DNA of 64,000 nt from Betaproteobacteria bacterium (GTDB lineage Bacteria; Pseudomonadota; Gammaproteobacteria; Burkholderiales; SG8-39), in NCBI GenBank assembly GCA_004297625.1, contig SCTY01000028.1, forward strand, positions 8,848-72,847. Direction: 5' to 3'. How positions within the stretch are numbered: the first letter of the stretch is position 1; each line of letters starts with the position of its first letter. The notes below the pieces were generated by a model. The model was given only the letters and a program-made list of their open reading frames with translations, was not told the DNA's origin and ran no database searches. Positions 421-60,780 of the stretch are shown here, piece by piece. The translations under genes and the position numbers were made by a program.

Positions 421-687
421 ATGACAAGAGAAGCGCTGAAGCGGGTCGAAGCCGGCCTGCCCGGGAGCTGGTATCGCGACCCGGCCCACTACCAGCGCGA
501 GCTCGACTCTGCGCTATGGGAGATCACCAACCGCCAGGACGCGCGCAACTGCGAATGGCAGCAGCAGGGACTGCAGTCGCGGGAATTCGTGCATGGCGTG
601 TACGTTCCGCAGGAGTTCGACGCACACCGCTTCGCGCAGTGGGTGCGCGAAGGTCTCGCCGCTAACGCGTCAGGAGCCAGCCGATGA
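421..687 (+). pseudogene. Internally deleted remnant of a Rieske-type ring-hydroxylating oxygenase alpha subunit
   Basis: The 88-aa ORF joins a typical N-terminus (LPGSWYRDPAHYQRELD) directly to a typical C-terminal tail (LWEITNRQDARNCEWQQQGLQSREF...PQEFDAHRFAQWV). The Rieske and catalytic core are missing. Confidence 0.45.
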
Positions 688-817
688 AGCCGAGCGCGGC
701 GAGCAGCCCGATGACCGCGCCGAGGACGCGCGAAGCGGTGCGCGCCGGCTGCTGCTCAGACTCGCTTTCCGTCTGCAGCGGCTGAAAACGCGGATAGCTT
801 CGTCCGATGCGGCCCAT
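662..817 (-). CDS. Possible 51-aa small membrane protein
   Basis: Own translation is MGRIGRSYPRFQPLQTESESEQQPARTASRVLGAVIGLLAALGFIGWLLTR. It has one C-terminal TM helix, a purine-rich GGGAGGGGAG run upstream and high GC3. It is below the ORF-track size cut-off. Confidence 0.25.
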   Translation of the reverse strand: MGRIGRSYPRFQPLQTESESEQQPARTASRVLGAVIGLLAALGFIGWLLTR

Positions 818-884
818 GGCCGCATCATCTCCCCTCCCGCGCGAACGGAGAAGGAATAAGGAAGTTGCTTGAAAGATTTTTACA

Positions 885-1670
885 CTACTCTTCGGGCAGC
901 ACCGGCCGCGCGCGGTGGCCCATTCCCCACATGACGTAGCCCGAGATGCCGTAAGACATGAAGAGCGCCCAGAGCACGAGGGACGGGCGCCAGGCCACCA
1001 CGGAGATGCCGATGACGCAGGCGAGGATTACCCAGAGCGGCACGCGCTTCTTCCAGTTCACTTCCTTGAAGCTCCAGAAGGGGACGTTCGACACCATCGT
1101 GATGCCGGCGAACACCGCCACCACCCACACCAGCCCCGCCGCCCAGCCGGTGGGCCGGAACTCGAAGTCGACGAGGACCCAGATGAGCCCGGTGAGCACC
1201 GCGGCGCCCGAGGGGCTCGGTAATCCCTGGAAGTAGCGCTTGTCGACCACCGCGATGTTGGCGTTGAACCGTGCAAGGCGAATCCCGGCCCCCGCGCAGT
1301 AAATGAAGGCGCCGATCCAGCCGAGCGTTCCGAGGTCCTTGAGCACCCAGATGTAGGACACGAGCGCCGGCGCCGCGCCGAAGGCCACCATGTCGGCGAT
1401 GCTGTCGAACTGCGCGCCGAACTCGCTCTGCGTGTTGGTCCAGCGCGCGACGCGCCCGTCCATGCCGTCGAGCACCATGGCGACGAAGATCGCGATCGCG
1501 CCGGTCTCGAAGCGCCCGTTCATCGCCTGCACGATGGCGAAGAACCCGCAGAAGAGCACTCCCGTGGTGAACAGGTTGGGCAGCAGGTAGATGCCGCGGC
1601 GGCGCAGGCCGCCGAGCCGCCCAGGCGGGGCGGCTACTTCCGGCTCGAACTCGGGGTCGTCGTCAGCCAT
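885..1670 (-). CDS. pssA: CDP-diacylglycerol--serine O-phosphatidyltransferase
   Basis: The 261-aa product starts at [10 protein letters not shown] and carries the CDP-alcohol phosphatidyltransferase motif (DGMDGRVAR...FDSIADMV) plus multiple TM helices. The track ORF 885..2204 is an over-extension. Confidence 0.9.
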
Positions 1671-7716: not shown

Positions 7717-8803
7717 ATCTTCTTTCCACCCACCACATCATCAGCACGGCCGCCGCAAGAAAGGCGGCGCTCGGGACCACCGCGGCGGAGAACGGCGGCC
7801 AGTTCTGCAGCAGGCCGATGTGCGAAAAAAGGCTGTTCAGCATGTGGAAGAAGATGCCCAGCATGATGCCGAGGAATACCTTCACGCCGACCGCGCCGGC
7901 GCGCGCCGACATGTATGCGAAAGGCAGCGCGAGCGCCATCATCACCAGCGCCGCGAGCGGATAAAGCAGCTTCTTCCAGAACGCGATTTCGTAGCGCTCG
8001 GTCTTCTGCCGGTTGCCGGCGAGGTGCTGGGTGTACTTGTGCAGCGCCCAGGCCGACATGTGCTCGGGGCGCACGATGAGCGCATCGAGCATCTCGGGAT
8101 TCACTGCCGAGCGCCATTCCTCCTCGGGCATGCGCGTGGTGCGCGGACCGTCGCGCGTGAACTCGGTCTGGACCACGTCCACCAGCCGCCAGCGCCCGCC
8201 GCTTTCGTATTCGGCGCGCTGCGCTGCAGTCATGCGCCGCAGGCGGTAATCGGCATCGAAGTCGAAGATGCGCACCCCTGAGAGCGAGTTCGCCTGGCGC
8301 GCCTCGCGGACGTTGATGAAGGCGCCCTCGTCCTTGAACCACAGCCCGGACTGCAAATCCTGCCCGATGAGCGAGCTCATCGCGCGCAGCTTCACCTTCT
8401 GCGCCTGCTCCTCCGCATTCGGGGCCAGCCATTCGCCGATGACGAAGGTGAACACGACGAACGCCAGGCCGATCTTGGCGAGCGCGAGCGCTGCGCGGCC
8501 CGGCGAGAGCCCCGAGCCGCGCATCACCGTGTACTCCGAGTTGCTGGCGAGGTGCGCGAGCACGTACAAGGTGCCGATGAGCACTGCCACCGGGAACAGC
8601 TCGTAGGCGTTCGTCGGCATGGAAAGCAGCACGAACGTGAACACCTGGCGCAGGTTGTAGTCGCCCGTGCCGAGATCGGCGAGCTCCTTGATCAGGTCGA
8701 AAAACGCGAACAGCGAGAGGAAGCCGAGCAGCACGAAGCCGACGGTGGCGTAGATCTGGCGCGCGAAGTAGCGCTCGAGCGTCGGAATTTGCCTTAGCGC
8801 CAT
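7715..8803 (-). CDS. lptG: LPS export ABC permease LptG
   Basis: 362 aa of the YjgP/YjgQ permease family, paired with lptF. Confidence 0.9.
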   Translation of the reverse strand: MALRQIPTLERYFARQIYATVGFVLLGFLSLFAFFDLIKELADLGTGDYNLRQVFTFVLLSMPTNAYELFPVAVLIGTLYVLAHLASNSEYTVMRGSGLSPGRAALALAKIGLAFVVFTFVIGEWLAPNAEEQAQKVKLRAMSSLIGQDLQSGLWFKDEGAFINVREARQANSLSGVRIFDFDADYRLRRMTAAQRAEYESGGRWRLVDVVQTEFTRDGPRTTRMPEEEWRSAVNPEMLDALIVRPEHMSAWALHKYTQHLAGNRQKTERYEIAFWKKLLYPLAALVMMALALPFAYMSARAGAVGVKVFLGIMLGIFFHMLNSLFSHIGLLQNWPPFSAAVVPSAAFLAAAVLMMWWVERR

Positions 8804-8813
8804 GCGCGCAGCC

Positions 8814-9890
8814 TCATCGGCCGATGCGCAGGCGTATCAGCTGCATGCGGCGGGCGAACATCACGACGAGCAGCACCACCATGCCGGCATGCACCAGCCA
8901 CCAGCCGACGCCGAAATCGAGGCGCCCCTGCACGACCTTCGCCTGGCTCACGCTGAGCAGGTTCGAGTACACGATGTAGGTGAAGAGCGCGAACAGCAGG
9001 TTGACCGAGCGTCCCGCGCGCGGATTGACGAAGCTCATCGGGATGGCGAGCAGCACGAGCACGATGGCCGAGATCGGCACGCCGATGCGCCATAAGAGCT
9101 CGCCGAGGTTGGCGTTGCTCGGATCCATGATCAGCGCCCAGGTCGGCAGATTCTTTTGCGTCGGCGGCGGCGCCGCGCTTTCCTTGGTCTCGATGCGCGC
9201 GGCGTAGCGCTCGAACTCCATCACGCGGTACTCCTCGTCGCCGGGCGAGCCCTCGTAGCGCCTGCCCTGCTCCAGCACGATGAAGTGGTCGCCGTTCGGC
9301 GCCGTTTCCGTGCGCCCGGTGCGGCTCATGATGACGCCGCTTTTCTGCTGCTGCACCGAGCTCACGAATACGTTCTGCACGGCGGAGGAGTCGCCGGAGA
9401 TCGACTCCACGAAGAACACGCGATCCTTGCTCGAGGTCTCGCCGAACACGCCGGGACTGACGCGCGAGACGTCGTCGCGCGCTTCGAGACGCGAGCTGAA
9501 CTGCTCGGCCATCTCCGCCGCCCACGGCGCGATGAACAAGGACAGCGCCGAGATCACCGCGATGAGCGGCAGCGCGAACAGCATCACGGGCTTGAGCCAC
9601 GCGGTGAGCGAAAGCCCCGAGCCGAACCAGATCACCATCTCGGAATCGCGCCAGCTGCGCGTGAGCGTGAGCAGCACCGAGATGAACATCGTGAGCGACA
9701 GCAGCACGGGCAGCGCATTGAGCGCGAAGAAGCCGAGGAACGCGACGACCGCGTCGGACGGAATCTTGCCGCCCGCTGCCTGGCCGAGCAGGCGGATGAG
9801 CCGCGTGGTGAGCGCGATGGCGAACAGCGTCATGAACACCGCGCCCGCGAGGCCGGCGAATTCCCTGAGGAGCGCCCGGTGGAAGATCAT
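8814..9890 (-). CDS. lptF: LPS export ABC permease LptF
   Basis: 358 aa of the YjgP/YjgQ family, divergent from pepA as in many proteobacteria. Confidence 0.9.
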   Translation of the reverse strand: MIFHRALLREFAGLAGAVFMTLFAIALTTRLIRLLGQAAGGKIPSDAVVAFLGFFALNALPVLLSLTMFISVLLTLTRSWRDSEMVIWFGSGLSLTAWLKPVMLFALPLIAVISALSLFIAPWAAEMAEQFSSRLEARDDVSRVSPGVFGETSSKDRVFFVESISGDSSAVQNVFVSSVQQQKSGVIMSRTGRTETAPNGDHFIVLEQGRRYEGSPGDEEYRVMEFERYAARIETKESAAPPPTQKNLPTWALIMDPSNANLGELLWRIGVPISAIVLVLLAIPMSFVNPRAGRSVNLLFALFTYIVYSNLLSVSQAKVVQGRLDFGVGWWLVHAGMVVLLVVMFARRMQLIRLRIGR

Positions 9891-9904
9891 GCGATACTTT
9901 CGCC

Positions 9905-11383
9905 ATGGAATTTAGCATAAAGGCTCTCTCTCCCGAGGCGGCAAAAACAGGCTGCGTGGTGCTCGGGTTTCATTCGGGAAAGGAGCTCACGCCGGCGGCG
10001 AAGCGAGTCGACCAGGCGGCGCGCGGCGCGCTGCGCAAGGCGCTCGGAGACGTGTCGGGCAAGACCGGCTCGACGCTGCTGCTGCGCGGATTGCCCGGGG
10101 TGGCCGCCGAGCGCGTGCTGCTCGTCGGCTTGGGCGAGCGCAAGGAGTTCGGCGAGAACGCCTATCGCGATGCCGTGCGCGCCGCCGCCAACGCGCTGCG
10201 CGAGCTGGGCGCAAAGGACGCGGCGCTGTTCCTCGTGGACACGAAGGTCGGCACGCGGCCGGTAAGCTGGAACCTGCGCCACGCGGTTCTCGGCACGCGC
10301 GAAGCGTTCTATCGCTTCGAGCAGCTCAAGACGCGGAAAAAAACGAGCGCGCCGGCGCTCTCGCACGTCGTGCTTCCGCTGAGCCCGAGCGCGCAGCTTG
10401 CGAGCGCGCTCGCCGAAGCGCGCGCTACCGCCGACGGCGCGGCGCTCGCGCGCACCCTCGGCAACCTGCCGGCGAACATCTGCACGCCCGGCTATCTCGC
10501 CGACGAGGCGAAAAAGCTCGCGCGCCAGTACAAGCTCCAGGTCGAGGTCCTCGAGCGCCGCGACATGGAAAAGCTCGGCATGGGCGCGCTGCTGTCGGTG
10601 GCGCGCGCGTCGCACCAGCCGCCCAAGCTCATCGTCCTGCGCTATTCGGGCGGCGCGAAAGGCCGCAGGCCGCTCGCGCTGGTCGGCAAAGGCATCACCT
10701 TCGACACGGGCGGCATCTCGCTCAAGCCCGCCGGTGAGATGGACGAGATGAAGTTCGACATGTCGGGAGCAGCGAGCGTTCTCGGCGCCCTGCACGCCCT
10801 TGCGGGCATGCGCGCGCCGGTGAACGTGGTCGGCGTCATCCCGACGTGCGAGAACATGCCGGGCGGATCGGCGTCCCGCCCGGGCGACGTGGTAACGACT
10901 CTTTCCGGCCAGACGGTGGAGATACTCAATACCGACGCCGAAGGGCGCCTGATCCTGTGCGATGCGCTCACCTACGCGGCGCGCTTCCAGCCCGAAGCGG
11001 TGCTCGACATCGCCACGCTCACCGGGGCCTGCGTCGTCGCTCTCGGGCACGTCGCCACCGGGCTTTTCGCCAACGACCAGAAGCTCGCGGACGAGGTACG
11101 CGCCGCCGCCGACGAGGCGTGGGACCGCGTCTGGCAGATGCCGCTCTGGGAGGACTACCAGGAGCAGCTGCGCTCGAACTTCGCCGATTTCGCGAACATC
11201 GGCGGCCGCCCCGCGGGCAGCATTACCGCGGCGTGCTTTCTTGCCCGCTTCGCGCGCGAGATGCGCTGGGCGCACCTCGACATCGCGGGCACCGCCTGGA
11301 AAAGCGGCCGTGAAAAGGGCTCCACCGGAAGACCCGTGCCGCTGCTGGTGCGCTTCGCGTTGCGACATGCAGGCAGGAAGTGA
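9905..11383 (+). CDS. pepA: Leucyl aminopeptidase (M17)
   Basis: 492 aa with the NTDAEGRLILCDAL signature. Confidence 0.95.
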   Translation: MEFSIKALSPEAAKTGCVVLGFHSGKELTPAAKRVDQAARGALRKALGDVSGKTGSTLLLRGLPGVAAERVLLVGLGERKEFGENAYRDAVRAAANALRELGAKDAALFLVDTKVGTRPVSWNLRHAVLGTREAFYRFEQLKTRKKTSAPALSHVVLPLSPSAQLASALAEARATADGAALARTLGNLPANICTPGYLADEAKKLARQYKLQVEVLERRDMEKLGMGALLSVARASHQPPKLIVLRYSGGAKGRRPLALVGKGITFDTGGISLKPAGEMDEMKFDMSGAASVLGALHALAGMRAPVNVVGVIPTCENMPGGSASRPGDVVTTLSGQTVEILNTDAEGRLILCDALTYAARFQPEAVLDIATLTGACVVALGHVATGLFANDQKLADEVRAAADEAWDRVWQMPLWEDYQEQLRSNFADFANIGGRPAGSITAACFLARFAREMRWAHLDIAGTAWKSGREKGSTGRPVPLLVRFALRHAGRK

Positions 11384-27363: not shown

Positions 27364-28410
27364 TTACGCCGCGACCGCGGTCCTTTGGCTCAGCAGCGCG
27401 AACGCGGCCATCGCCGCGGCCTTGCCCTGCGCGATCGAGTCGTCGATGGTCTCCGGGCCCGTCGCCGCGCCGGCGACGAACACCCCCGGCCGCGACGTCT
27501 CGCCGAGCGAGCCGTAGGAATTGCCCTTGCCGATGTGCCCGTGCTCCTGCAGCTGCACGCCGAACACGGCCGCGATGGACTTGTTCTCGACGTTGGGATC
27601 CATGCCGATCGCATGCACCACCATGTCGAATGGAATGGTGATCGGCCGCTTCACCAGCGTGTCCTCGCCCTTGACGATCAGCTTGTGGCCGTCGGAGGTC
27701 ACCTCGGCGATGCGCGCCTTGATGTACTTCACCTTGAACTCCTCCTGGCTCCTCCAGTAGTAGGCCTCGTTGAGGCCGTAGGTGCGGATGTCCATGTAGT
27801 AGATGTACACGTGGCAGTCGGGCAGCTCCTCGCGGATCTCCATAGCGATGTTGCACGACACCGTGCAGCAGATCTTCGAGCACCATTCGCGGCCGATCTG
27901 CCGGTCGCGCGAGCCGACGCAGAGCAGGATCGCCACGCGCTGCGGCTTACGGCCGTCGGAGGGGCAGCGGATGCCTTTGCCCGTCGAGATCATCTGCTCG
28001 ACCTGCGTGGTGGTGACCACGTCCGGGAAGGTGCCGAAGCCCCACTCGGGCTTGTTCACCGAGTCGAAGTGCGTGAAGCCCGTGGTGAGGATCGCGGCGC
28101 CGGCTTCCAGGGTCGAGCCGTCGGAGAGCCTTGCCGTGAAATTCCCGGGTTCGCCGTTGAACTGCTCGACACGGCAATTGCGCTTCAGGGCGATCGAAGA
28201 GCTCTGCTCGACCCGCTTGACCATGCCGCCGATGGCGTCCTTCGCCCATTCTCCGGAAGGCACGAGCTTCGCGTAGCCGGAGAGGATCGGCGCGCCGCCG
28301 AGGCGCGGCTCCTTCTCGACGAGGAGGGAGCGCTGGCCTATGCTGGCCAGCGCGTGCGCGGCGGCGAGGCCCGCGGGCCCGCCGCCGACGATGAGAATCG
28401 GTTTAGTCAT
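27364..28410 (-). CDS. shdrA: sHdrA (HdrA-like FAD/FeS flavoprotein)
   Basis: MTKPILIVGGGPAGLAAAHAL (FAD fold) and CVGSRDRQIGREWCSKICC (HdrA-type cluster motif). The ATG at 28410 is preferred because the track start lies inside the repeat element. Confidence 0.9.
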   Translation of the reverse strand: MTKPILIVGGGPAGLAAAHALASIGQRSLLVEKEPRLGGAPILSGYAKLVPSGEWAKDAIGGMVKRVEQSSSIALKRNCRVEQFNGEPGNFTARLSDGSTLEAGAAILTTGFTHFDSVNKPEWGFGTFPDVVTTTQVEQMISTGKGIRCPSDGRKPQRVAILLCVGSRDRQIGREWCSKICCTVSCNIAMEIREELPDCHVYIYYMDIRTYGLNEAYYWRSQEEFKVKYIKARIAEVTSDGHKLIVKGEDTLVKRPITIPFDMVVHAIGMDPNVENKSIAAVFGVQLQEHGHIGKGNSYGSLGETSRPGVFVAGAATGPETIDDSIAQGKAAAMAAFALLSQRTAVAA

Positions 28411-28424
28411 GGGTGTTCTCTGCC

Positions 28425-28531
28425 GACCCCCTGTTAAGGGGGTCATGAGCCGAAGGCGAATGGGGGGTTGAATTTTGCGAAAAGCGAACCCCCCGCTCGC
28501 GTCGCTCGCTTCCCCCCTTGACAGGGGGGCG
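28425..28531 (-). repeat. ~107-bp three-hairpin intergenic repeat element, copy A (shdrB1-shdrA spacer)
   Basis: Hairpins are GACCCCC-tgttaa-GGGGGTC, gcgaatggggggtt...aaccccccgctcgc and CCCCCC-ttgaca-GGGGGG. Its reverse complement aligns along its full length with 49265-49374. Confidence 0.85.
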
Positions 28532-28542
28532 GCCAGAAATCG

Positions 28543-29880
28543 TCATCGTGCCGCCTTAATCGGGATGTAGCCCGGCCCCGACGTGAGCATGCGGCGCGGG
28601 TCGTAGAGGTTTTCCTGCTTGCCCGCCTTGATCTCTTCGAGATAGGCGACGAACTCGGCCTTCTTCGCTTCCCAGTCGATGCCGAGCTTTTCCATCAGGG
28701 TTTCGGTCGGCGAGGCGTGCCAGTGCGACTGCACGATCTTGTACGGATGCGCGCCGCACGCGAGCGCGGCGAACTGGCAGTCGGCGAGGATCGGCAGCTC
28801 GTAGCCCTTGCCGGCCGCTTTTCCGATCCACTGGTTCTTGTCGAGCGTGGTGATGCAGCCGGTATCGTGGCCGATCATCACGTCGGCGTGCGCTTCCTCG
28901 ACCGCCACCTTGACCTTGCGGTCGATGGCGAAGGAGCGCGTGAACTCGCGCTCGGAGATGATATGGCGGAAGCCGAAGCCGCAGCAGTCGTACCAGGTCG
29001 AATAGTCGATCACCTGCGCGCCGAGCGCCTGCATGATGCTGGTCGAGTTGGCGAGGCGGTTGCCGCCGTTGATGCTGTCGTCGTAGATCGCGTCCTCGGG
29101 CACCATCTTGTAGACATGGCACGCCGGATGGATGGTCGCGCGAATGCCGCTGCAGTCGATCTGGCGCATCTCGGCGATTCGATTGCGCATGACGTGCAGC
29201 CACTCCGAGTAGTGCACCACTTCCTCGGGGATGAGGAGCTTGCCGTCCACCAGGCGCCCGAGCTTTCCAAGGATCGTGCGCACGCGTTCGCGCAGCTTGG
29301 CCGAGCGCAGCAAATACGCCCGCACCTCCTTGTAGTTGCCGAACGAGGTGCCGCAATGCACGAGCGGGTAGTAGTACGACTCCGGCAACCCCTGCGCCTT
29401 GGCCGATACGTAGGCCTGGTGAAAGTTGCGCAGGAACACCGCGGCGAGGCTTTCCAGGTTGCCGATGCCCGAGCCGTGGTAGTTCCAGGCGGTGCACGAG
29501 GTCTGGTCGGTCTCGTCGAGGTACTCGACGTTCATCTTGTTCATGAGCCACAGCAGCGACGCCGGGTAGCCCGGAATGTTGCCGCACTGGCCGCAGGACT
29601 TGTGGTGCCAGAGGCGCTGCGTCGGGATCTTCTTGTCCCAGCCGTAGAGCGTCTTCACCGTCACCGGGTCGTGCTGCTCGGAGATGCGGTGCACGACGAT
29701 CTCGCCGTCCTTCTCGAGATCCCACATGATGTCGCGCACGTCCTCGACGCGATCCTTCTGCGTGAGCATCGAGCGCTTGTCGATCTTCAGCTCGACCCAG
29801 GAGGTCGCGATCTTCGCCTCCACCGGCGAGAGGTTCGAATCGCGCCACTCGGGTCCGTGGCCGGTGAATCGTTCATTCAT
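28543..29880 (-). CDS. shdrB1: sHdrB1 (HdrB-like, CCG domains)
   Basis: 445 aa, ...WHHKSCGQCGN...YDCCGFGFRH... Confidence 0.9.
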   Translation of the reverse strand: MNERFTGHGPEWRDSNLSPVEAKIATSWVELKIDKRSMLTQKDRVEDVRDIMWDLEKDGEIVVHRISEQHDPVTVKTLYGWDKKIPTQRLWHHKSCGQCGNIPGYPASLLWLMNKMNVEYLDETDQTSCTAWNYHGSGIGNLESLAAVFLRNFHQAYVSAKAQGLPESYYYPLVHCGTSFGNYKEVRAYLLRSAKLRERVRTILGKLGRLVDGKLLIPEEVVHYSEWLHVMRNRIAEMRQIDCSGIRATIHPACHVYKMVPEDAIYDDSINGGNRLANSTSIMQALGAQVIDYSTWYDCCGFGFRHIISEREFTRSFAIDRKVKVAVEEAHADVMIGHDTGCITTLDKNQWIGKAAGKGYELPILADCQFAALACGAHPYKIVQSHWHASPTETLMEKLGIDWEAKKAEFVAYLEEIKAGKQENLYDPRRMLTSGPGYIPIKAAR

Positions 29881-45854: not shown

Positions 45855-47084
45855 ATGCGCGACATCGCAACGAGCCAGACGATCCTGGTGGTCGGCGGGG
45901 GCGTGAGCGGCATGACCGCTGCGCTCGAAGCCGCGGAATGCGGCAAGCAGGTGCTCCTCGTGGAGAAATCGCCGACGCTCGGCGGCCGCACCGCGCTTCT
46001 CTACCGCTACTTCCCGAAGCTCTGCCATCCGACGTGCGGGCTGGAAATCAACCTGCGCCGCCTGAAGGGCAACCGCAATGTGCGCGTGATGACGATGGCG
46101 GAGGTCGTCAGGGTCGAAGGCCGCCGCGGCGATTACAGCGTCACGCTGCGCGTCGCGCCGCGCTTCGTGAACGAAAACTGCACGGCCTGCGGCGCCTGCG
46201 CCGAGGCGGTGGGCGCCGAAATTCCGAATCCCTGGAACTACAACCTCAACCGCATGAAGGCGGCGTACCTGCCCCATGCCATGGCTTACCCGCAGCGCTA
46301 CGTGCTCGATGCGTCGATCGCCGGCACGCCGGACGCCGAGAAGGCAAGAACGGCGTGCAAGTACGGCGCCATCGATCTCGAAATGAAGGAGCAGACGCTC
46401 ACGGTGAGCGCCGGCGCGGTCGTGTGGGCGACGGGCTGGAAGCCGTATGACGCGGCCAAGATCCAGCCCTACGGCTATGGGCGCTACGCGAACGTGATTA
46501 CCAGCGTGGAATTCGAGCGCCTGGCCGATCCGCACGGCCCGACCGGCGGGCGCATCGTGCGGCCCTCCGACGGCAAGGAGGCGAAGAACATCGCCTTCAT
46601 CCAGTGCGCGGGATCGCGCGACGAGAACCATCTGCGCCACTGCTCGCGCATCTGCTGCATGGCCTCGCTCAAGCACACGCAGTTCGTGCGCGAGGCCTAC
46701 GGCGAGGCGGCGCGCTCGACGATCTACTACATCGACATCCGCGCCATCGACCGCTTCGAGGACTTCTACCGCAAGGTGCGCGCCGACCGCACCGTGAAGT
46801 TCGTGAAGTCCAAGCCGGCGCGCATCGCGGAGGACCGGGCCAGCGGCGATGTCGTGCTGCACGGTGTCGATACCGAGGGCTATCACCGCTACGCTGCGCA
46901 GCACGATCTCGCGGTGCTTGCGATCGGCATGGAGACCGCCGTGCCGCTGCCGCAGGACGCCGAAGTGTTCCCCGCGGGCTGCGCCGCCGACGCGCTCGAT
47001 GTCAACCGCTCGGTGCAAAGCTCGACCGCCGCCGCGCTGCGCGCGATCCAGGTCGTCAACCGCGCGGCCCGGGCCGAATCATGA
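45855..47084 (+). CDS. qmoA: QmoA (HdrA-like flavoprotein)
   Basis: 409 aa, ILVVGGGVSGMTAALEAAECG...CAGSRDENHLRHCSRICC. Confidence 0.85.
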   Translation: MRDIATSQTILVVGGGVSGMTAALEAAECGKQVLLVEKSPTLGGRTALLYRYFPKLCHPTCGLEINLRRLKGNRNVRVMTMAEVVRVEGRRGDYSVTLRVAPRFVNENCTACGACAEAVGAEIPNPWNYNLNRMKAAYLPHAMAYPQRYVLDASIAGTPDAEKARTACKYGAIDLEMKEQTLTVSAGAVVWATGWKPYDAAKIQPYGYGRYANVITSVEFERLADPHGPTGGRIVRPSDGKEAKNIAFIQCAGSRDENHLRHCSRICCMASLKHTQFVREAYGEAARSTIYYIDIRAIDRFEDFYRKVRADRTVKFVKSKPARIAEDRASGDVVLHGVDTEGYHRYAAQHDLAVLAIGMETAVPLPQDAEVFPAGCAADALDVNRSVQSSTAAALRAIQVVNRAARAES

Positions 47085-49246
47085 AGACCGCGGCCTATCT
47101 CTGCGGCGGCTGCGGCATCGCCGAGCAGCTCGACACCGCACGCCTTGCCGCGATCGCCGAGCGCGAGGGCAAGGTGGATCTCGTGCGCGAGCATCCGTTC
47201 CTTTGCTCGGCCGAAGGGGTGCAGGCGATCCGCGAGGGCATCGACAAAGACGGCGCCACCCACGTGATGCTCGCCGCCTGCTCGCGGCGCGCGAAAACGG
47301 AGGCCTTTTACTTCCCCGACGTCGCGGTGGCGCGCGCCAACTTGCGCGAAGGCGTGGTCTGGATCCAGGAGAAGGGAGAAGCGGCGCAAGAGATGGCCGA
47401 CGACTACGTGCGCATGGCGTGCGCGGAACTGAAGCGCATGCAGGTGCCGAAAGCCGGCCCCGACACCGGGAAGAGCAAGCGGGTGCTCGTGGTCGGCGGC
47501 GGCATTTCGGGACTGACGGCGGCGCTCGAGGCGGCCGAGGCCGGCTACGAGGCGCTCATCGTCGAGAAGGAAGCGGCGCTCGGCGGCTGGGCTGCGCGCC
47601 TGCACCGCCGCATTCCGGAGCGCGCGCCTTTCAAAGATCCCGCGGAAACGGGCGTGCCGGCGCTTGTCGATGCCGTAACTCGAAATTCAAGAATTAAACT
47701 GCAATTGGGAACCACGGTTGCGCAAACCGCGGGCGCGCCCGGGCGCTTTCGCGTCACGCTGTCCAACGGGCGAACCGAAGAGGTCGGCGCCATCGTGCAG
47801 GCGAGCGGCTTCTCGCTCTACGACGCCGCGCGCCTCGCCGAGTTCTCCTACGGAAAGTCGCCCGACATCGTGGACCAGGCGGGGCTTGAGGCATTGGCGA
47901 AAAAATCGATCCCGATTCGTCGCCCGTCGGACAACAAGGAAGTCAAGCAGGTGGTTTTCGTGCAGTGCGCGGGGCAGCGCGACGACTCGGGCAAGCACCT
48001 GCCCTACTGCTCGGGCCACTGCTGCGCCACCTCGATGAAGCAGGCGATGTACTTCAAGGACGCGAATCCGGCCGTCGACACGGTGGTGATCTACACCGAC
48101 CTGCGCGTGCCGGGGAACGGAGAAGACTTCTACCGCTCTGCGCAGGCGAAGGGCGTCACCTTCACCAAGGGCAAGGTGTCGGCTGTCGAGGCCGACGGCG
48201 CGGTGAAGTTCAGGGACCTGATCCTTGATGAGGACACTCAAATTAAAGCCGACTTGGTGGTGCTCGCGACCGGGCAGGTGCCCAATTCCGGCGTCAACAT
48301 CGACAACCCCGACGAGCCGGACGCGAACGGCGCGAAGCCGATCTCGATCCTGAACCTCGAGTACCGGCAGGGAAGCGACCTGCCGCGGCTCGCGCACGGA
48401 TTCTCCGACTCGCACTTCATCTGCTTCCCGTACGAGACGCGCCGCACCGGCATCTACACCGCCGGGCCGGTGCGCCGGCCGATGGACATCGCGCAGGCGG
48501 TGGAGGACGCGACCGGCGCCGCGCTGAAGGCGATCCAGGCGACCGAGAACGCGGCGCTCGGGCGCGCGGCGCATCCGCGCTCCGGCGACCTCTCGTTCCC
48601 GCTGGTGCGTCTCGACGGTTGCACGCAGTGCAAGCGCTGCACCGTGGAATGCCCGTTCGGCGCCATCGACGAGGACGAGAAGCGCTACCCCGTCTTCAAC
48701 GAGAGCCGCTGCCGGCGCTGCAGCACGTGCATGGGCGCCTGCCCGGTGCGCGTGATCTCCTTCGAGAACTACTCGGTGGACTCCGTCGGCGCGCAGATCA
48801 AGGCGGTCGGGATCCCCGACGAGACCGAGGAGAAGCCGCGCATCCTCATCCTCGCGTGCGAGAACGACGCCTATCCGGCGCTCGACATGGCCGGGCTGCA
48901 GCGCGTCAAGTACTCGGCCGCGGTGCGCGTGATACCGGTGCGCTGCCTCGGCTCGGTGAACCAGGTCTGGGTGACCGACGCCCTGAATGCCGGCTACGAC
49001 GGCATCATGCTGCTGGGCTGCAAGCACGGCGACGACTACCAGTGCCACTTCGTGCGCGGCTCGGCGCTCGCGGCCGAGCGCATGAGCAAGATCGACGATA
49101 CGCTGAAGCAGCTCGCGCTCGAGAACGAGCGCGTCATCACCTGCGAGGCCGCGATCACCGACATCGCGAGGCTGCCGCGCCTGATCGACGAGTACGCGCA
49201 GACCATCGAGCGCATCGGCCTTTCGCCGCTCAAGGGGTTCGCATGA
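47081..49246 (+). CDS. qmoB: QmoB (HdrA-like flavoprotein with ferredoxin and MvhD-like C-terminal domains)
   Basis: 721 aa, VLVVGGGISGLTAALEAAEAG...CAGQRDDSGKHLPYCSGHCC...CTQCKRCTVECP...CRRCSTCMGACP...ILILACENDAYPALD. ATGA overlap with qmoA. Confidence 0.85.
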   Translation: MKTAAYLCGGCGIAEQLDTARLAAIAEREGKVDLVREHPFLCSAEGVQAIREGIDKDGATHVMLAACSRRAKTEAFYFPDVAVARANLREGVVWIQEKGEAAQEMADDYVRMACAELKRMQVPKAGPDTGKSKRVLVVGGGISGLTAALEAAEAGYEALIVEKEAALGGWAARLHRRIPERAPFKDPAETGVPALVDAVTRNSRIKLQLGTTVAQTAGAPGRFRVTLSNGRTEEVGAIVQASGFSLYDAARLAEFSYGKSPDIVDQAGLEALAKKSIPIRRPSDNKEVKQVVFVQCAGQRDDSGKHLPYCSGHCCATSMKQAMYFKDANPAVDTVVIYTDLRVPGNGEDFYRSAQAKGVTFTKGKVSAVEADGAVKFRDLILDEDTQIKADLVVLATGQVPNSGVNIDNPDEPDANGAKPISILNLEYRQGSDLPRLAHGFSDSHFICFPYETRRTGIYTAGPVRRPMDIAQAVEDATGAALKAIQATENAALGRAAHPRSGDLSFPLVRLDGCTQCKRCTVECPFGAIDEDEKRYPVFNESRCRRCSTCMGACPVRVISFENYSVDSVGAQIKAVGIPDETEEKPRILILACENDAYPALDMAGLQRVKYSAAVRVIPVRCLGSVNQVWVTDALNAGYDGIMLLGCKHGDDYQCHFVRGSALAAERMSKIDDTLKQLALENERVITCEAAITDIARLPRLIDEYAQTIERIGLSPLKGFA

Positions 49247-49264
49247 TGCTGACAGCAGGCCGTT

Positions 49265-49374
49265 GCCCCCCTGACAAGGGGGGAGCGAGCGTTTTCTGCG
49301 AGCGGGGGGTTTGCATTTCGCGAAAACCAACCCCCCGTTCGCCTTCGGCTCACGCCCCCCTTGACAGGGGGGCG
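49265..49374 (+). repeat. ~110-bp three-hairpin intergenic repeat element, copy B (qmoB-hdrC spacer)
   Basis: Hairpins are CCCCCC-tgacaa-GGGGGG, gcgagcggggggtt...aaccccccgttcgc and CGCCCCCC-ttgaca-GGGGGGCG. It has the same orientation relative to transcription as copy A. Confidence 0.85.
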
Positions 49375-49391
49375 GCAGCGCAGGTGTATCC

Positions 49392-49991
49392 ATGAGCGCC
49401 TACCAGGGCGACTTCCTCAAGGAAGTCGAGGCCCGCGTCGAGGAAGGCGAATGGGTGAAGATGTGCATGCAGTGCGGCGTGTGCGCCGGCTCGTGCCCCT
49501 TCGGCCCGCACTGGGAGCATTCGCCGCAGAAGATCTTCATGATGATCCGCGCGGGCAAGCGCGAGGAGGTGCTCACCTCGGATGCGATGTGGATGTGCAC
49601 CTCCTGCTACAACTGCGTGGTGCGCTGCCCGCGCAAGCTGCCGATCACGCAGATCATGCATGGGCTCGCGACCTATGCCCATCGCCTGGGCCTCGCGCCG
49701 AAAATGCAGCCGACGCGGCGCTTCTCGGTCACGTTCTGGAGCAACCTCACCCGCACCGGGCGCGTGAACGAGTTGAAGCTCGTCCTCCAGGTCTATTTCC
49801 GCAACGGGTTCGCCGCAGGCCTCAAGGAGTTCTGGAACATGCGGCGCGTCGGGCTGCGGCTGCTCGCCGCGAAGCGCATGAACCCGTTCGAGCTCGTCTT
49901 TCCGCACCGCTGCAAGGACGCGAAGGGCATCCAGCGCATGCTCGCGAAAGCCTGCGAGATCGAGAACCGCAAGCGAGGATTCAGCCAATGA
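49392..49991 (+). CDS. hdrC: HdrC-like iron-sulfur protein (replaces QmoC)
   Basis: 199 aa with the motifs CMQCGVCAGSCP and CTSCYNCVVRCP. Confidence 0.85.
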   Translation: MSAYQGDFLKEVEARVEEGEWVKMCMQCGVCAGSCPFGPHWEHSPQKIFMMIRAGKREEVLTSDAMWMCTSCYNCVVRCPRKLPITQIMHGLATYAHRLGLAPKMQPTRRFSVTFWSNLTRTGRVNELKLVLQVYFRNGFAAGLKEFWNMRRVGLRLLAAKRMNPFELVFPHRCKDAKGIQRMLAKACEIENRKRGFSQ

Positions 49992-51238: not shown

Positions 51239-52405
51239 TCAAATAAGCGCCCTTCCTCGTAGGTCTTTCCTCCGATCCACAGAAATGCCAAGTTCCTGCA
51301 GCACCTCGTCCGTGTGCTCGCCGAGATCCGGAGGCGGCCGTAATTGCGCTTCACGCTCGCCATCGAAGCGTAACGGTCGCCGCATGCCCCTGACCTCGCC
51401 GTGGACACCATGCAGTGACTTAAACAGTAAATTGAGGTGGCGTACCTGCGGATCGTCAAAGAGCTCATTCACCCGGCGTTCAGGCGCAAACGGTACGTCG
51501 TTCGCTTCAAGTACTTGCATCCATTCGTCTCGATTACGCTTGCGGAATATTCCGGCCAGCTCCTTTGCGATGTCCTCATAGCGCGAGATCCGAGCCCTGC
51601 GATCCGGATATTTCTGAAGGAAGTCAGGCCGCTCAATTGCTTTTGCGAGCGATTCCCAGAACTTGTTCGGTGACGAAAGTTGAAGGCCTATTCGTTTGCC
51701 ATCCCTGCATTCAAGCAAATAAGCCTGGGAAGTCGCACCCCGGGAATACTGGGTGGGAGCTTGGCCGGTCGCGAGATATTGGCCGATTGGTTCAGCCCCA
51801 AAAGCCATGGTGGCTTCCAGCATGCTGGTGTCCACCCTTCGCCCAACACCACTCTTTTCGCGATCAAACAGCGCGGCGAGAATGCCCAGGCAGGCGAAGA
51901 GCCCCGTAAGTGCATCTGAAACGGCTGGTCCGGCGACTCTCGGATCGCTTCCGTCATGAAAGAGTGAGAGCCAGCCACTCAATGTCTGGCCAACATTGTC
52001 ATACGCCGGCCTGGATGCATAAGGGCCATCGAAACCGAATCCCGTAATGGAGCAGTACACGAGCCGCTGATTGACCCCATGGAGTCGATCGTAGTCGACC
52101 CCCAGTTTTTCTGACACGCCAGGCCGATTGTTGAGAATGACCACATCCGCGTTGCTGACCAGCTTGTGCAATATTTCGAGGCCTTCAGGCTTCGAATAAT
52201 CCAGCGCGAGGCTTCGCTTGTGCCGGTTATATGACTGGAAATGAGGGCTATAAAGTCCGCCCTCAAAGGAGCGGAACGGATCACCGGTCCCGGGACGCTC
52301 GACCTTGACAACGTCCGCGCCCAGCTCGGCCAACAACATCGCTGCATAAGGCGCAGTAATGAAATTCCCGAGGTCTATTACCCGAATGCTGTGGAGAACA
52401 TTCAT
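51239..52405 (-). CDS. Family-III (CaiB/BaiF) CoA-transferase
   Basis: 388 aa, IRVIDLGNFITAPYAAMLLAELGADVVKVERPGTGDP... Confidence 0.9.
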   Translation of the reverse strand: MNVLHSIRVIDLGNFITAPYAAMLLAELGADVVKVERPGTGDPFRSFEGGLYSPHFQSYNRHKRSLALDYSKPEGLEILHKLVSNADVVILNNRPGVSEKLGVDYDRLHGVNQRLVYCSITGFGFDGPYASRPAYDNVGQTLSGWLSLFHDGSDPRVAGPAVSDALTGLFACLGILAALFDREKSGVGRRVDTSMLEATMAFGAEPIGQYLATGQAPTQYSRGATSQAYLLECRDGKRIGLQLSSPNKFWESLAKAIERPDFLQKYPDRRARISRYEDIAKELAGIFRKRNRDEWMQVLEANDVPFAPERRVNELFDDPQVRHLNLLFKSLHGVHGEVRGMRRPLRFDGEREAQLRPPPDLGEHTDEVLQELGISVDRRKDLRGRALI

Positions 52406-52417
52406 GATTTTTCCTAT

Positions 52418-53884
52418 CTAATTGCCTTCCTTACCGGCAATAAGCACAGAACCCGCGCCTTTCCGCACGTAGACATATGCGGGCCTTTTCTGCCTGGTCA
52501 AACCGTTAATCAACCCCTGCAGGTCTCGCGTCCCGTCAGAGCTCCGGCTTTGTGACCGTTCTGCGCGCATGGTAATGACCTCCTCCTTGCCGGCGACATA
52601 ACGAAGCAAGAGCTCGTCGTCCGAGATGTTCGAATCGCCATATTGTTCGCGCATTTCCGCCAGCGTCGGCTGAGGAGGTTGCCAGCGCGCGAGTTCGTCA
52701 GCGCGAGATCGGCGAAGAATGACATCCTTGATGGTCGGATCTATGGCATCACTTTCCTCTTCACCCCAGTGACCTAGGGCGTACTGGATGATCTCATCAG
52801 TGACTGTCTTGTATCGCTCCCCGGCCACTACATTTATGGCTGCCTGAACGCCGACATACTGCGAGTACGGCGTCACCATGATGGGATAGCCAAGATCCTC
52901 TCTTACTCTGGCAGTCTCCTTCAGCACTTCGTCAAGCTTGTTACCCAAGCCAGCACTTGCCAGTTGATGCCTGAGATTTGAGATCATGCCGCCGGGAACT
53001 TGATGAATAAATTGCTCATGGTCGTATGGCGCAGGGACACCAAGAGGCAATCCCTCTTGAATCGCAACGGAAGTGAGATGCTTCTCGACTGCTTTAATTG
53101 CGTCTTCATCAACTGATGACGAGTAACCGAGCGCCCTCGCATTCTTGACAATGTTCAAGATTGAGGGATTGGACGATCCGTCGGCAAGCGGTGGAATCGC
53201 AGTATTTATGTGCCGTATACCAAGCTTGATGGCCTCGAGACAGCAAAGAGGTCCGAGGCCAGTATGGCAATGAGTATGGAATTCAAGCGGGATTCCGTTG
53301 ACGTTCTTGAGGACCACCGGGACCAGAGTCCGTGTTCTTTCTGGTGTAAGCAAACTGCCGGGATCCTTGATGCAAATTCGGACAACGTCGAGCTTTGCCG
53401 CTTCCCTGGCCTTCTCGGCGTAGTACTCATCCGTGTGCTTTGGGGAATACGTATATATAAGGTTCAGGATAGGTGCGATTCCAACTTTCCGCGCCTGCCC
53501 GACGAGATAGCGCCATCGAGCGACCGTATTGGATGGATCTGCGAGGCGCGCTTCGCGTATTCCATGAGCAGCAATCCTCTTCCACCAGATTTCATCAATG
53601 GAGAGTGGGGTAATCTGAAAAGCCGCCAGGTAGCGGCTTCGGATCATGCGAAGCGGCGTCTTCTTGACCCGTTCTCCTACGAGATCAATTCTTTCCCAGG
53701 AGTCCTCGCCTAGCTCACGGACTATTTTCTTATCGAAGTTTGTGGCAAGAATTTCTATCGCCACGAATCCGGCTTCATCCATGTAGCTTGCGACGGCCAA
53801 CATCATCTCCGTCCTCATCCCGGTTGCCCATAGACTCATCTGCCCATCGCGAAGCGTGGTATCGATGTACGTGATATCCGGCAT
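52418..53884 (-). CDS. Carboxyltransferase subunit of a biotin-dependent 2-oxoacid carboxylase/decarboxylase (PycB/OadA 5S-type), no BCCP domain
   Basis: 488 aa, ITYIDTTLRDGQMSLWATGM...LEFHTHCHTGLG (HMGL-like TIM barrel plus PYC_OADA). The C-terminus carries no biotinyl domain. Confidence 0.85.
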   Translation of the reverse strand: MPDITYIDTTLRDGQMSLWATGMRTEMMLAVASYMDEAGFVAIEILATNFDKKIVRELGEDSWERIDLVGERVKKTPLRMIRSRYLAAFQITPLSIDEIWWKRIAAHGIREARLADPSNTVARWRYLVGQARKVGIAPILNLIYTYSPKHTDEYYAEKAREAAKLDVVRICIKDPGSLLTPERTRTLVPVVLKNVNGIPLEFHTHCHTGLGPLCCLEAIKLGIRHINTAIPPLADGSSNPSILNIVKNARALGYSSSVDEDAIKAVEKHLTSVAIQEGLPLGVPAPYDHEQFIHQVPGGMISNLRHQLASAGLGNKLDEVLKETARVREDLGYPIMVTPYSQYVGVQAAINVVAGERYKTVTDEIIQYALGHWGEEESDAIDPTIKDVILRRSRADELARWQPPQPTLAEMREQYGDSNISDDELLLRYVAGKEEVITMRAERSQSRSSDGTRDLQGLINGLTRQKRPAYVYVRKGAGSVLIAGKEGN

Positions 53885-53932
53885 GGCGGTTATTGCGCAG
53901 CTCCTGTCAGGGCACCGTGTGCGTGATTCCGA

Positions 53933-55291
53933 TCAGCCCGCAGGCATTTCGGGCATCAGCGCCTCGACGAGTCTGGTGCTGACCCGGCCCGATTCAAACT
54001 CGGGATGCCCGACCACGAAACGCAGGAATTCCAGAGTTGTACCGACGCCGGCAACCACAAAGTGATCGAGCGCCCATCGCATCCGCTGGAGTGCTTCGCC
54101 TCGATCTGCTCCGTGGACGATCAGCTTTGCCAACAGTGAATCGTAGTGTGGAGGCACCGTATAGCCCGCATAACAGTGTGTATCCAGCCTGACGTGCGCC
54201 CCTTCCGGTGGCACCCAAGTGCCGATCCGGCCAGGACATGGACGAAAATTTTCTTTGGGTATTTCTGCGTTTATTCGGCACTCAATGGCGTGACCACTGA
54301 ACCTCACATCCGACTGCTTAAAGCGTAGGGCGTCGCCGCCCGCCACACGAATCTGTTCCTGAACCAGGTCGATCCCAGTGATCATTTCAGTGACCGGATG
54401 CTCGACTTGGATGCGTGTGTTCATTTCGAGAAAATGAAACGTTTTCGCATCCTGATCCAGAACAAATTCAACGGTTCCGGCATTCTCGTACTGCATTTCC
54501 CGGGCGAGCGTGACTCCGGCCTCGTGAATCCGTTCCCTAAGTCGTTCATCAATTCCGGGCGCTGGTGTCTCCTCGATAAGCTTCTGGTGTCGCCGCTGCA
54601 GTGAACAATCCCGCTCGCCCAGATGGATCACATTGCTGTATCGATCACCGAAAACCTGTACCTCGATGTGGCGTGCATTCGGGATAAATCGCTCGACGTA
54701 GAGCGAGTCGTCACCAAACGCTGCACGTGCCTCAGCAGCTGCCGATTCAAACGCTCGTTGCAGGTCTGCGGCGTTTGTAACCACCTTCATACCGCGGCCT
54801 CCTCCGCCTGCGGCCGCCTTGATCATTACAGGCAACCCAACCTTCTCGGCAATTGTCAAAGCGTGCTTGTACGAGAAGAACTTTTCCGACCCGGGAAGAA
54901 CGGGCAAGCCGTAACGATCGGCAAGTGTCCGGGCAAGGACCTTGTTGCCCATAACTCGGATCTGCTCGGGAGTCGGACCGATAAACGTAATACCTGCTGA
55001 GCGACACGCCTGAGCAAGCTCAGCGGACTCGGCGAGAAATCCATAACCCGGATGGATTGCATCTGATCCGGTGCCGAGAGCCGACGCGACGATGGCCTTG
55101 ATGTTCAGATAGCTGTCCGCCGCCCTTGCGGGGCCAATACACACAGTACGACCGGCCATCCTGCTCGGAAGGCTGTCGCGATCAGCCTCGGAAATCGCAA
55201 GTACCGTATCAATTCCAAGTGCCTGGCAGGCCGTAATGATTCGAACGGCAATTTCGCCCCGATTGGCAACAAGGACGCGCGATATGCTCAT
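53933..55291 (-). CDS. Biotin carboxylase subunit
   Basis: 452 aa with an ATP-grasp fold, MSISRVLVANRGEIAVRII...GGGGRGMKVV...EMNTRIQVEHPVTE. Confidence 0.92.
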   Translation of the reverse strand: MSISRVLVANRGEIAVRIITACQALGIDTVLAISEADRDSLPSRMAGRTVCIGPARAADSYLNIKAIVASALGTGSDAIHPGYGFLAESAELAQACRSAGITFIGPTPEQIRVMGNKVLARTLADRYGLPVLPGSEKFFSYKHALTIAEKVGLPVMIKAAAGGGGRGMKVVTNAADLQRAFESAAAEARAAFGDDSLYVERFIPNARHIEVQVFGDRYSNVIHLGERDCSLQRRHQKLIEETPAPGIDERLRERIHEAGVTLAREMQYENAGTVEFVLDQDAKTFHFLEMNTRIQVEHPVTEMITGIDLVQEQIRVAGGDALRFKQSDVRFSGHAIECRINAEIPKENFRPCPGRIGTWVPPEGAHVRLDTHCYAGYTVPPHYDSLLAKLIVHGADRGEALQRMRWALDHFVVAGVGTTLEFLRFVVGHPEFESGRVSTRLVEALMPEMPAG

Positions 55292-55319
55292 GTGGTTCGT
55301 TCGCCAGCTCGAGCCGCGC

Positions 55320-55823: not shown

Positions 55824-55959
55824 TTTACGTTTCCCTTTGTGTCCGAGGAAACGACTTCCGTCTCCTCGTCGCTCCGCTGACTCCACTGCCCAGCGGGAGA
55901 ATCATTTCTCATAGCCGCTTCGCCGCTGACACGTTCCGTCCATTCGTTCGAGTTGAGCT

Positions 55960-58091: not shown

Positions 58092-58221
58092 GATGCCTCC
58101 TCTGTGGATGAGAGCCGTATGGGACGGTGGCAAGAAGGTGCTCTCACTTCATCTCCTTGCGGTAATGCTGTTTGCCATCCTATGCACTATGAAAAAATCT
58201 CCGGCTTCCGTTCTAAGCGCG

Positions 58222-59825: not shown

Positions 59826-59858
59826 GAGGCAAAGCAAACGGCGCTGAGCAGGGATATT

Positions 59859-60758: not shown

Positions 60759-60761
60759 CAA

Positions 60762-60780
60762 TTCGGGACGTTGTCCCGAA
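60762..60780. promoter_or_regulatory. Perfect inverted repeat abutting the iclR start codon
   Basis: TTCGGGAC-gtt-GTCCCGAA with 8-bp arms, 3 nt upstream of the ATG at 60758. Confidence 0.35.

Follow-up and report, generated by a model that had tools for sequence, protein, structure and literature searches.

The closest published relative of the repeat described here is the Betaproteobacterial repeat element (BRE), a GC-rich repeat of ~90 bp found in Bordetella, Polaromonas, Delftia, and other Betaproteobacteria (Hot et al. 2011, PMC3110155). Most BRE copies are intergenic, some reach a few bases into the ends of open reading frames (ORFs) or lie entirely within them, and the repeat is transcribed as BprJ1/J2 (PMC3110155). 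Palindromic repeats have also been described as tolerated as translated sequence, namely the Rickettsia palindromic elements (RPEs; Ogata et al. 2000, as cited in PMC3184786). Here we analyze two palindromic inserts, copies A and B, in a 64,000-nt stretch of contig SCTY01000028.1 from a Betaproteobacteria bacterium (GCA_004297625.1; the whole stretch is called the window). Each copy lies between two genes of an Hdr-like operon, at a junction where the upstream stop codon and the downstream start codon shared the four bases ATGA. The copies belong to a dispersed repeat family, were inserted precisely at ATGA and have ATGA on both sides, and the family is biased in its orientation and in the phase of its length. 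We consider it likely that each copy is a non-autonomous palindrome resembling MITEs (miniature inverted-repeat transposable elements) and the paired repetitive extragenic palindromes (REPs) known as REPINs, that it is related to BRE, and that it is tolerated at the ATGA overlap through a translated ORF, the relay ORF, that bridges the insert.

Two palindromic inserts at ATGA stop/start overlaps

The ~110-nt element consists of two ~45-nt units in inverted arrangement, and the unit also occurs singly and in tandem at loci of Burkholderiales metagenome-assembled genomes (MAGs). The alpha unit has the consensus C6-TGNCAA-G6-A(A)GCGAGC-x-GCGAGC-G6-TT, and the diverged, reversed beta unit reads AA-C6-G(C/T)TCGCCTTCGGCTCAC-C5-6-TTGNCA-G5-6. 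An earlier reading of the window by a model working from the letters (the sequence-only reading) had noticed one element in two intra-operon spacers, at 80-90% identity by eye, in the same mRNA orientation and with no further copies in the 64 kb. All of this holds. Copies A (minus strand, about 28420-28535) and B (plus strand, about 49262-49378) were confirmed where that reading had placed them, and the reverse complement of A aligns with B from end to end at 86% mean column identity, flanks included (MAFFT). The pair is the longest inverted repeat of the window (81 nt, 88%). Core patterns, for which shuffles predict 0.0-0.4 chance occurrences, were seen only at the A and B loci, and a hidden Markov model (HMM) built from 66 family members matched only these two copies in the window. 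For both copies the alpha half is 5′ in the mRNA (HMM bits by strand, 110 vs 79 and 108 vs 67).

Pfam domains agree with the names that had been given to the flanking genes. Copy A lies between the genes of a CCG-domain HdrB-like protein and an HdrA-like flavoprotein, in a dsrE-hdrC1-hdrB1-hdrA... cluster, and copy B separates an HdrC-like 4Fe-4S gene from a QmoB-like gene that has a FlpD C-terminus. From the upstream stop to the first C6 run there are 13 nt in A and 19 nt in B, and from the last G run to the downstream ATG there are 16 and 19 nt, respectively. The only ORF carried by either insert (132 nt in A, 145 nt in B) is the bridging frame of 47-50 codons; neither has a transposase of its own.

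Relatives of the window preserve the same junctions in an empty state. In GCA_040960765.1 (locus L243), whose HdrA homologue is 98% identical to that of the window, hdrB1 (8667-10004) and hdrA (10001-11047) overlap by 4 bases, ...GTCAAATGAACAAACCG..., with no element between them; the window reads ...CACG-ATGA-[132 nt]-ATGA-CTAAACCG, with ATGA on both sides of the insert. The HdrB1 C-terminus has the same length in both, and the HdrA N-terminus is MTKPILIVGGG in the window and MNKPILIVGGG in the relative. The qmoB/hdrC junction repeats this picture: a 77%-identical relative with a 199-residue HdrC-like protein (L246) has an ATGA overlap without the element, ...GGGGTTCGCATGAGCGCCTAC..., and the window reads ...GGGGTTCGC-ATGA-[145 nt]-ATGA-GCGCCTAC..., the bases that adjoin ATGA being identical on each side in copy B and L246. 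In another relative (84%) the junction is qmoB-TGAcATG-hdrC, with a longer HdrC N-terminus and again no element. ATGA thus stands once in each of the two empty overlaps, L243 and L246, and twice at each window junction. Beyond ATGA no duplication was found, the bases to its left and right, read by eye, matching no more than composition predicts. Judged against these empty sites, both window copies are precise insertions into ATGA stop/start overlaps. With an ATGA at either end of the insert, the stop codon of the upstream gene and the start codon of the downstream gene are both retained. The insertion of copy A into the sHdr operon is recent, and both spacers are recent passengers of their operons.

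Two further loci bear on these junctions. An 88%-identical HdrA relative carries a decayed copy at its hdrB1-hdrA junction (L244:9893-9985), consisting of an intact beta-type unit and a degenerate half; the upstream ATGA is retained and the downstream side reads GGAATGTCG. It probably arose by a separate and older insertion into that junction. The HdrC/QmoC-like protein (window 49392-49991 and homologues P0121-P0240) exists in two forms, one of 199 residues (MSAY...) with an ATGA overlap with qmoB and one of 207-210 residues (MG..LNL.ALAKY...) with a TGAcATG junction, and the window insertion belongs to the short-form lineage. In a homologue of that lineage (P0121; 199 aa, 87%) the qmoB-hdrC position shows a gap of 147 nt, which probably holds the element too.

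Each copy was predicted to fold at minimum energy into one long nested imperfect hairpin (A, -70.6 kcal/mol, z = -6.8; B, -85.4 kcal/mol, z = -9.5), and the two strands of either copy fold about equally well. The palindromic structure described earlier therefore stands, but not as three separate hairpins: the terminal C6/G6 ‘hairpins’ pair with each other in the predicted fold, where the outer arms GCCG-C6-TGNCAA-G6 ... C6-TTGNCA-G6-CGGC base-pair and the whole element forms an imperfect palindrome. Some family copies lengthen the terminal inverted repeat to GGTTTTGCCG / CGGCAAAACC. A search for selection on the sense-strand RNA gave no strand excess, either in G-U pairs (99 vs 109) or in folding energy (-87.2 vs -88.5 kcal/mol), so the palindrome looks like a DNA-level feature and not one shaped in mRNA. 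The G-quadruplex that the sequence-only reading had offered as one function is not favored, as each strand has only three G runs and the predicted fold pairs all of them with C runs. No Rfam family matched the window at its gathering score, and at E<=1 only generic long-hairpin (miRNA precursor) models appeared, far under threshold. Neither a terminator-like site nor a promoter was found around copy B, and both copies are followed by CGGCAG... with no T run, unlike an intrinsic terminator.

Features at the two junctions, in window coordinates (relay ORFs are putative)
Feature	Position	Strand	Remarks
HdrA-like flavoprotein gene	27364..28410	-	3′ of copy A
Relay ORF, copy A	28403..28546	-	47 codons + TAA (MTISGRPPVKGG...ENTHD); starts on the ATG overlapping the hdrB1 stop
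Downstream ATGA, copy A	28407..28410	-	HdrA-like start codon; second copy of the duplicated tetranucleotide
Copy A, inserted palindromic element	28411..28542	-	132 nt; from empty-site comparison; predicted fold -70.6 kcal/mol
Beta unit, copy A (inverted)	28427..28469	-	AA-C6-ATTCGCCTTCGGCTCATGA-C5-TTAACA-G5
Alpha unit, copy A	28487..28529	-	C6-TGTCAA-G6-AAGCGAGCGACGCGAGC-G6-TT
Upstream ATGA, copy A	28543..28546	-	HdrB1-like TGA stop overlapping the old ATG, now relay ORF start
HdrB1-like gene (CCG domain)	28543..29880	-	5′ of copy A
QmoB-like gene (FAD/4Fe-4S/FlpD domains)	46604..49246	+	5′ of copy B; 5′ limit from the mechanical ORF
Upstream ATGA, copy B	49243..49246	+	QmoB-like TGA stop overlapping the old ATG
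Relay ORF, copy B	49243..49395	+	50 codons + TGA, exactly ATGA to ATGA (MMLTAGRCPPDKGG...AAAQVYP)
Copy B, inserted palindromic element	49247..49391	+	145 nt; from empty-site comparison; predicted fold -85.4 kcal/mol
Alpha unit, copy B	49266..49311	+	C6-TGACAA-G6-AGCGAGCGTTTTCTGCGAGC-G6-TT
Beta unit, copy B (inverted)	49329..49372	+	AA-C6-GTTCGCCTTCGGCTCACG-C6-TTGACA-G6
Downstream ATGA, copy B	49392..49395	+	HdrC-like start overlapping the TGA of the relay ORF
HdrC/QmoC-like 4Fe-4S gene	49392..49991	+	3′ of copy B

The true start of the QmoB-like gene is further downstream than 46604, probably at the qmoA/qmoB ATGA near 47081. At the far end of the window (52001-64000) the G+C content falls from about 0.64-0.69 to about 0.555-0.58, and these last 12 kb may be a horizontally acquired segment.

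Junction preference, orientation, and length phase across the family

Scanning one genome per species for the terminal 18-nt hairpin CCCCCCTGNCAAGGGGGG returned at least 119 loci (L001-L119) in MAGs of many phyla. When the window copies were compared with these loci by BLAST, the longer matches, among those listed, came only from Burkholderiales/Betaproteobacteria MAGs, mostly from soil. A second scan of metagenomes with an alpha-specific pattern gave at least 120 soil and sediment contigs (L123-L242), on which 126 sites comprise about 77 doublets and 49 singlets. The genes on either side of family members are of all kinds and include dozens of unrelated pairs, and the family is large, dispersed, and very abundant in soil Burkholderiales-type Betaproteobacteria contigs. 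The singlets are heterogeneous, many being internally deleted doublets, and follow no clear relay pattern. These inverted doublets and singlets at many unrelated loci, together with the two empty sites that show insertion, bear out the earlier suggestion of a REP/MITE-like element.

The family statistics that follow rest on the listed metagenome contigs, with flanking genes called by a frame test on G+C content at third minus second codon positions (GC3-minus-GC2). Fifty of the 55 doublets with callable flanks lie between co-directional genes, three between convergent and two between divergent ones. Within the 50 co-directional doublets the alpha unit comes first in the mRNA 41 times and the beta unit nine times; merging orthologous sites left 38 independent co-directional sites, of which 30 have alpha first and eight have beta first. 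ATGA is present at the upstream stop in 28 of these 38 sites, compared with six of 19 co-directional junctions of an annotated relative locus (binomial 2e-7), and 13 nt, the spacing seen in copy A, is the commonest distance from the upstream stop to the first C6 run. The strand that runs from alpha to beta has 1.89 stop-free frames per element, the other strand 1.00, and shuffles 1.18. The orientation bias fits the proposed relay because the favored strand is the one with more stop-free frames.

In both window copies the original Shine-Dalgarno-like run is still present 5′ of the old ATG (in copy B, AAGGGG 6 nt before it, identical in the empty site L246), and the bridging ORF begins on that ATG. 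The frame of copy B runs exactly from one ATGA to the other, and that of copy A has its stop 4 nt beyond the first base of the hdrA ATG (ATGACTAA). The same arrangement recurs in the family. Of 47 unique sites, 40 have a start codon that overlaps the stop of the upstream gene; read from there, the ORF spans the whole palindrome in 36 of the 40, and the spanning ORF ends on a TGA overlapping ATG, GTG, or TTG in 31 of the 36. For a strict test of phase we took one site per orthology cluster and required an independently called downstream start, which left 30 testable sites. The start-to-start distance is 2 mod 3 in 22 of these, and in 20 the ORF has its stop exactly at +1 of the downstream start (a descriptive binomial probability of 2e-4 against one third). 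The in-phase distances cover many lengths: 125, 128, 131 (three sites), 134, 137 (five), 140 (two), 149 (two), 152 (three), 167, and 182 nt.

Where one junction carries a copy in more than one genome, the copies differ by several indels (paired 2-nt changes among them) that sum to multiples of 3, and their peptides leave and regain register. Because the indels sum in this way, the conserved property is the phase of the total length and not the peptide sequence. Three Burkholderiales MAG loci that had been collected before the pattern was noticed offer an independent check: the frame is exact in L087 (45 codons, GTGA to ATGA) and L040 (50 codons, ATGA to ATGA), and in L076 it stops 2 nt before the ATG.

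The unit was also found in other settings. In a Burkholderiales MAG (SMAG_U10032, L067:1250-5660) at least seven units occur in 8 kb, far more densely than in the window, with a tandem alpha-alpha-beta cluster between convergent genes and units flanking a restriction-endonuclease-like / zinc-finger ORF. A core of the form C6-TG(A/T)CAA-G6-[2-25 nt]-G6-TT extends beyond Betaproteobacteria, often with many copies per MAG and as inverted pairs, to Nitrospinota, Poribacteria, and other sponge-symbiont MAGs, Geobacteraceae/Desulfuromonadales, Gallionella, Zoogloeaceae, Cloacimonadota, Omnitrophota, and Parcubacteria (e.g., L003:1602-1689, L009:4644-4729, L016:5200, L011:1376, L017:3182-3232). Each carrier group has its own insert, such as GTA, ATTGA, or a small hairpin, and in the genome-scan loci a second G run comes after almost every occurrence of C6-TGNCAA-G6. 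The C6/G6 hairpin with a second G6 run is likewise present in 28 IMG/VR viral contigs (L248-L275; e.g., L252:1035-1052), about ten of which are related and have ...CACCCCCCTGGCAAGGGGGGTTGGGGGGTAG... in common. In L252 this stretch lies wholly inside a 282-codon mechanical ORF on the opposite strand (583..1431), where it would add a short proline/glycine-rich segment. A Poribacteria MAG (L096:1640-1860) has three to four copies of GTTTCCCCCCTGACAAGGGGGGTAGGGGGGTT, spaced at a period of about 65 nt, immediately 5′ of cas4- and cas1-like genes; the layout is like a short CRISPR array with the family unit as its repeat, and Tandem Repeats Finder made no call there. Cas1-like ORFs adjoin the motif in L024 and L062 as well.

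The relay reading and its alternatives

The course of events that we propose draws on the scanning model of termination-reinitiation. The palindrome landed precisely in an ATGA overlap, where the upstream TGA and the downstream ATG have bases in common, and left the old ribosome-binding site and the old ATG upstream with an open frame of 47-50 codons through the palindrome. In the proposed relay, ribosomes that end the upstream gene would restart on the old ATG and open up the hairpin in the course of translating the relay ORF; they would then terminate where the next gene starts and re-initiate there, so that the translational coupling of the operon would outlast the insertion. The sequence-only reading had named a breaker of translational coupling among the possible functions; if anything, the reverse applies, as a start-to-stop relay is preserved across the insert. 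Left untranslated, a hairpin of -70 to -85 kcal/mol would probably act as a barrier to 3′ exonucleases or as an RNase III substrate, like transcribed REP/MITE hairpins. Effects of the hairpin on mRNA decay, processing, or RNase III cleavage, like those reported for REPs and for Correia and ERIC elements, are possible. Termination-reinitiation at overlapping or nearby start codons is itself established (reviewed in PMC12548453). We are more cautious about the stronger statement that the palindromes specifically use ATGA overlaps, that selection holds the insert length in the phase that ends the ORF on the next start, and that ribosomes are relayed across; to this we give somewhat less than an even chance.

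Several observations weigh against the relay. Window copy A misses the exact phase, since insert and duplication together amount to 136 nt (1 mod 3), and a strict relay was not seen in 10 of the 30 testable sites. The family statistics are post hoc: the sample in which the phase pattern was noticed also served to test it, which makes the p-values descriptive, and the independent check comprises three loci only. The excess of open frames on the favored strand could be a founder property of the element instead of a product of selection. Translation of the relay ORF, and the passage of ribosomes from it to the downstream start, are steps that we infer from the reading frames. As for the insertion itself, a 4-bp target-site duplication is indistinguishable, in sequences such as these, from an ATGA-carrying element that inserts beside ATGA. 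No transposase was found beside repeat copies in the loci searched, and there are two copies in the 64-kb window and none in 21 kb of the 98% relative.

A different mobile-element class would account for part of this picture. The element could be a REPIN or REP moved by a single-copy REP-associated tyrosine transposase (RAYT, IS200/IS605-like), its spacer location being neutral or mildly useful and its bridging ORF functionless. Two short palindromic units in inverted orientation, accompanied by many singlets that look like decayed halves, are what a REPIN family consists of. A location between co-directional genes is typical for REPs, and REP ends that supply stop codons, as well as REPs within ORFs, are known (PMC3733652). 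The lack of G-U strand asymmetry also suits this explanation, as it leaves the palindrome DNA-symmetric. However, IS200/IS605-type transposition is not expected to leave a target duplication, and here ATGA stands on both sides of the insert and once in the empty sites. Neither the GTAG nor the CGTC tag of REPs is present in the units, alpha or beta, of the window or of L123-L242, including those of Burkholderiales, and GTAG occurs between G runs only in a variant from sponge-symbiont and Nitrospinota MAGs. A tblastn search of the 1.46 Mb of window and loci with E. coli RayT found one real Y1_Tnp gene and no Y1 transposase near any copy. That gene (L068:2466-3095, Nitrospinota MAG) encodes a RAYT-like Y1 transposase (PF01797) with HIH and Y motifs and is flanked by classical GTAGGGGCGG-type (GTAG) REP hairpins, not by the C6/G6 unit. 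An excess of 22 in-phase sites of 30, spread over many lengths, would moreover be hard to obtain without constraint. We therefore regard movement by a RAYT, with a functionless ORF, as unlikely.

The insert has terminal inverted repeats, small size without a transposase, and ATGA once in the empty sites and twice in the window (an ATGA-carrying element remaining the alternative), all of which are MITE features. A parent insertion sequence with the same ends was not found in the searched loci. Clustering of 1,120 ORFs in the 119 listed loci yielded no recurrent neighbor family: the only clusters were spurious GC-rich frames, ABC ATPases, and Cas1 in Poribacteria, and the ORFs between paired copies are ordinary metabolic or housekeeping enzymes.

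Another explanation takes up functions suggested by the sequence-only reading and makes the element a dedicated cis-regulatory RNA of the Hdr-like operons that sets subunit stoichiometry through processing, stability, or uncoupling. Both window copies do lie in such operons, fill their spacers, and have the same mRNA orientation, and the 88%-identical relative has its third, decayed copy at an hdrB1-hdrA junction. Such a role is nevertheless very improbable. The element is absent from the hdrB1-hdrA junction of the 98% relative and from the qmoB-hdrC junction of relatives, and because its presence varies among close relatives a conserved Hdr-specific element is ruled out. It also stands between dozens of unrelated gene pairs, with no Rfam match and no terminator-like tail. 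Its presence in two Hdr-like operons is explained by the ATGA overlaps of these operons and not by their function. When we searched the window for ATGA junctions, requiring 80 open codons with coding-type GC3 on both sides, five intact ones were found (plus strand, 20040, 47081, and 49988; minus strand, 24926 and 26561), and with the two filled ones six of seven lie within the sHdr and Qmo-like operons. Since these hold six of the seven ATGA overlaps of the window, and such overlaps are the preferred landing site, two insertions in Hdr-like operons are to be expected.

Most copies do have a defined stop and a start codon preceded by a Shine-Dalgarno-like run, but it is scarcely credible that the 47-50 codon ORF is a real small-protein gene with the palindrome secondary to it: at one and the same junction the peptides differ by internal, later restored frame shifts, ORFs are present in either orientation of the element, peptide likeness is no greater than DNA similarity implies, and the insert is missing from close relatives.

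Our results have little bearing on Hdr biology, as the spacers are not part of the sHdr or Qmo design. Their interest is for mobile-DNA and translation biology, where precise insertion into 4-nt overlaps with both stop and start regenerated is of note and the conserved length phase suggests that being translated is what the insert pays for its tolerance. If the relay reading is true, it would explain how closely coupled genes of respiratory complexes can have a hairpin of -70 to -85 kcal/mol between them and still be expressed, and it would represent a new way for selfish DNA to colonize the most compact operon junctions. It would also supply a natural test bed for termination-reinitiation over about 50 codons of extremely stable structure, and would warn annotators that ‘hypothetical’ ORFs of 40-60 codons between overlapping genes may be repeat-borne relay frames.

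Relation to known repeats

The searchable literature yielded no description of insertion at ATGA overlaps with a phase-conserved bridging frame and no paper matching the hairpin sequence itself; this habit of the family is apparently undescribed. The last ~52 nt of BRE at its 3′ end align blockwise with the window unit, in the form GCCCCC-loop-GGGGG(G)-(C)AGC(A/G)AGC-insert-GC(G)AGCG-G5-8-TT, and in the BRE supplementary sequences the block before the final G5-8-TT is written GCGCAGCG. The two also have in common a Betaproteobacterial host, an intergenic location, and some copies within ORFs. They differ in the loop (TCG/TTG in BRE, TGNCAA in the window family) and in an extra 5′ T-run/GGCAAAAAA part of BRE, which is described as tandem and variable-number-tandem-repeat-like, with <=29 copies per genome, and is reported without inverted doublets, ATGA junctions, or a bridging ORF. 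Overall identity between the two is low (55% mean column identity), and homology is no more than plausible.

REPINs and REPs with their RAYTs (PMC3116915, PMC2817692, PMC3733652) likewise form inverted doublets that fold as one long hairpin and leave singlet remnants, and REPs have the same preference for co-directional spacers. Unlike REPINs, the window family has a duplicated ATGA, no GTAG/CGTC tag, and no associated RAYT in the loci searched, and it strongly prefers one kind of junction and one length phase.

Correia/NEMIS elements of Neisseria and ERIC elements of Yersinia are MITEs of 100-150 bp that have terminal inverted repeats and duplicate a short target. Transcribed together with their neighbors, they form long hairpins and have been reported to alter mRNA processing and stability. 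Their sequences are unrelated to the window family and they duplicate TA, in contrast to ATGA, and we know of no targeting of stop/start overlaps and no bridging frame in these elements.

In its tolerance as coding sequence the window family resembles RPEs. A single alpha unit lies in frame in the linker of ABC-F-type ATPases, between ...GGYSDYLRQR and KLSYKE.RELE..., on four soil contigs (L157, L200, L209, L232; at aa ~113-229 of the ORFs), and another lies within a 1009-aa helicase-like ORF (L145:4679-4723). Such an intragenic unit adds about 15-20 residues (e.g., APLSRGE..ERGV), and in this the family is like the RPEs. RPEs, however, insert inside genes and join the host protein, whereas the window copies lie between genes, where each would give rise to a separate short ORF.

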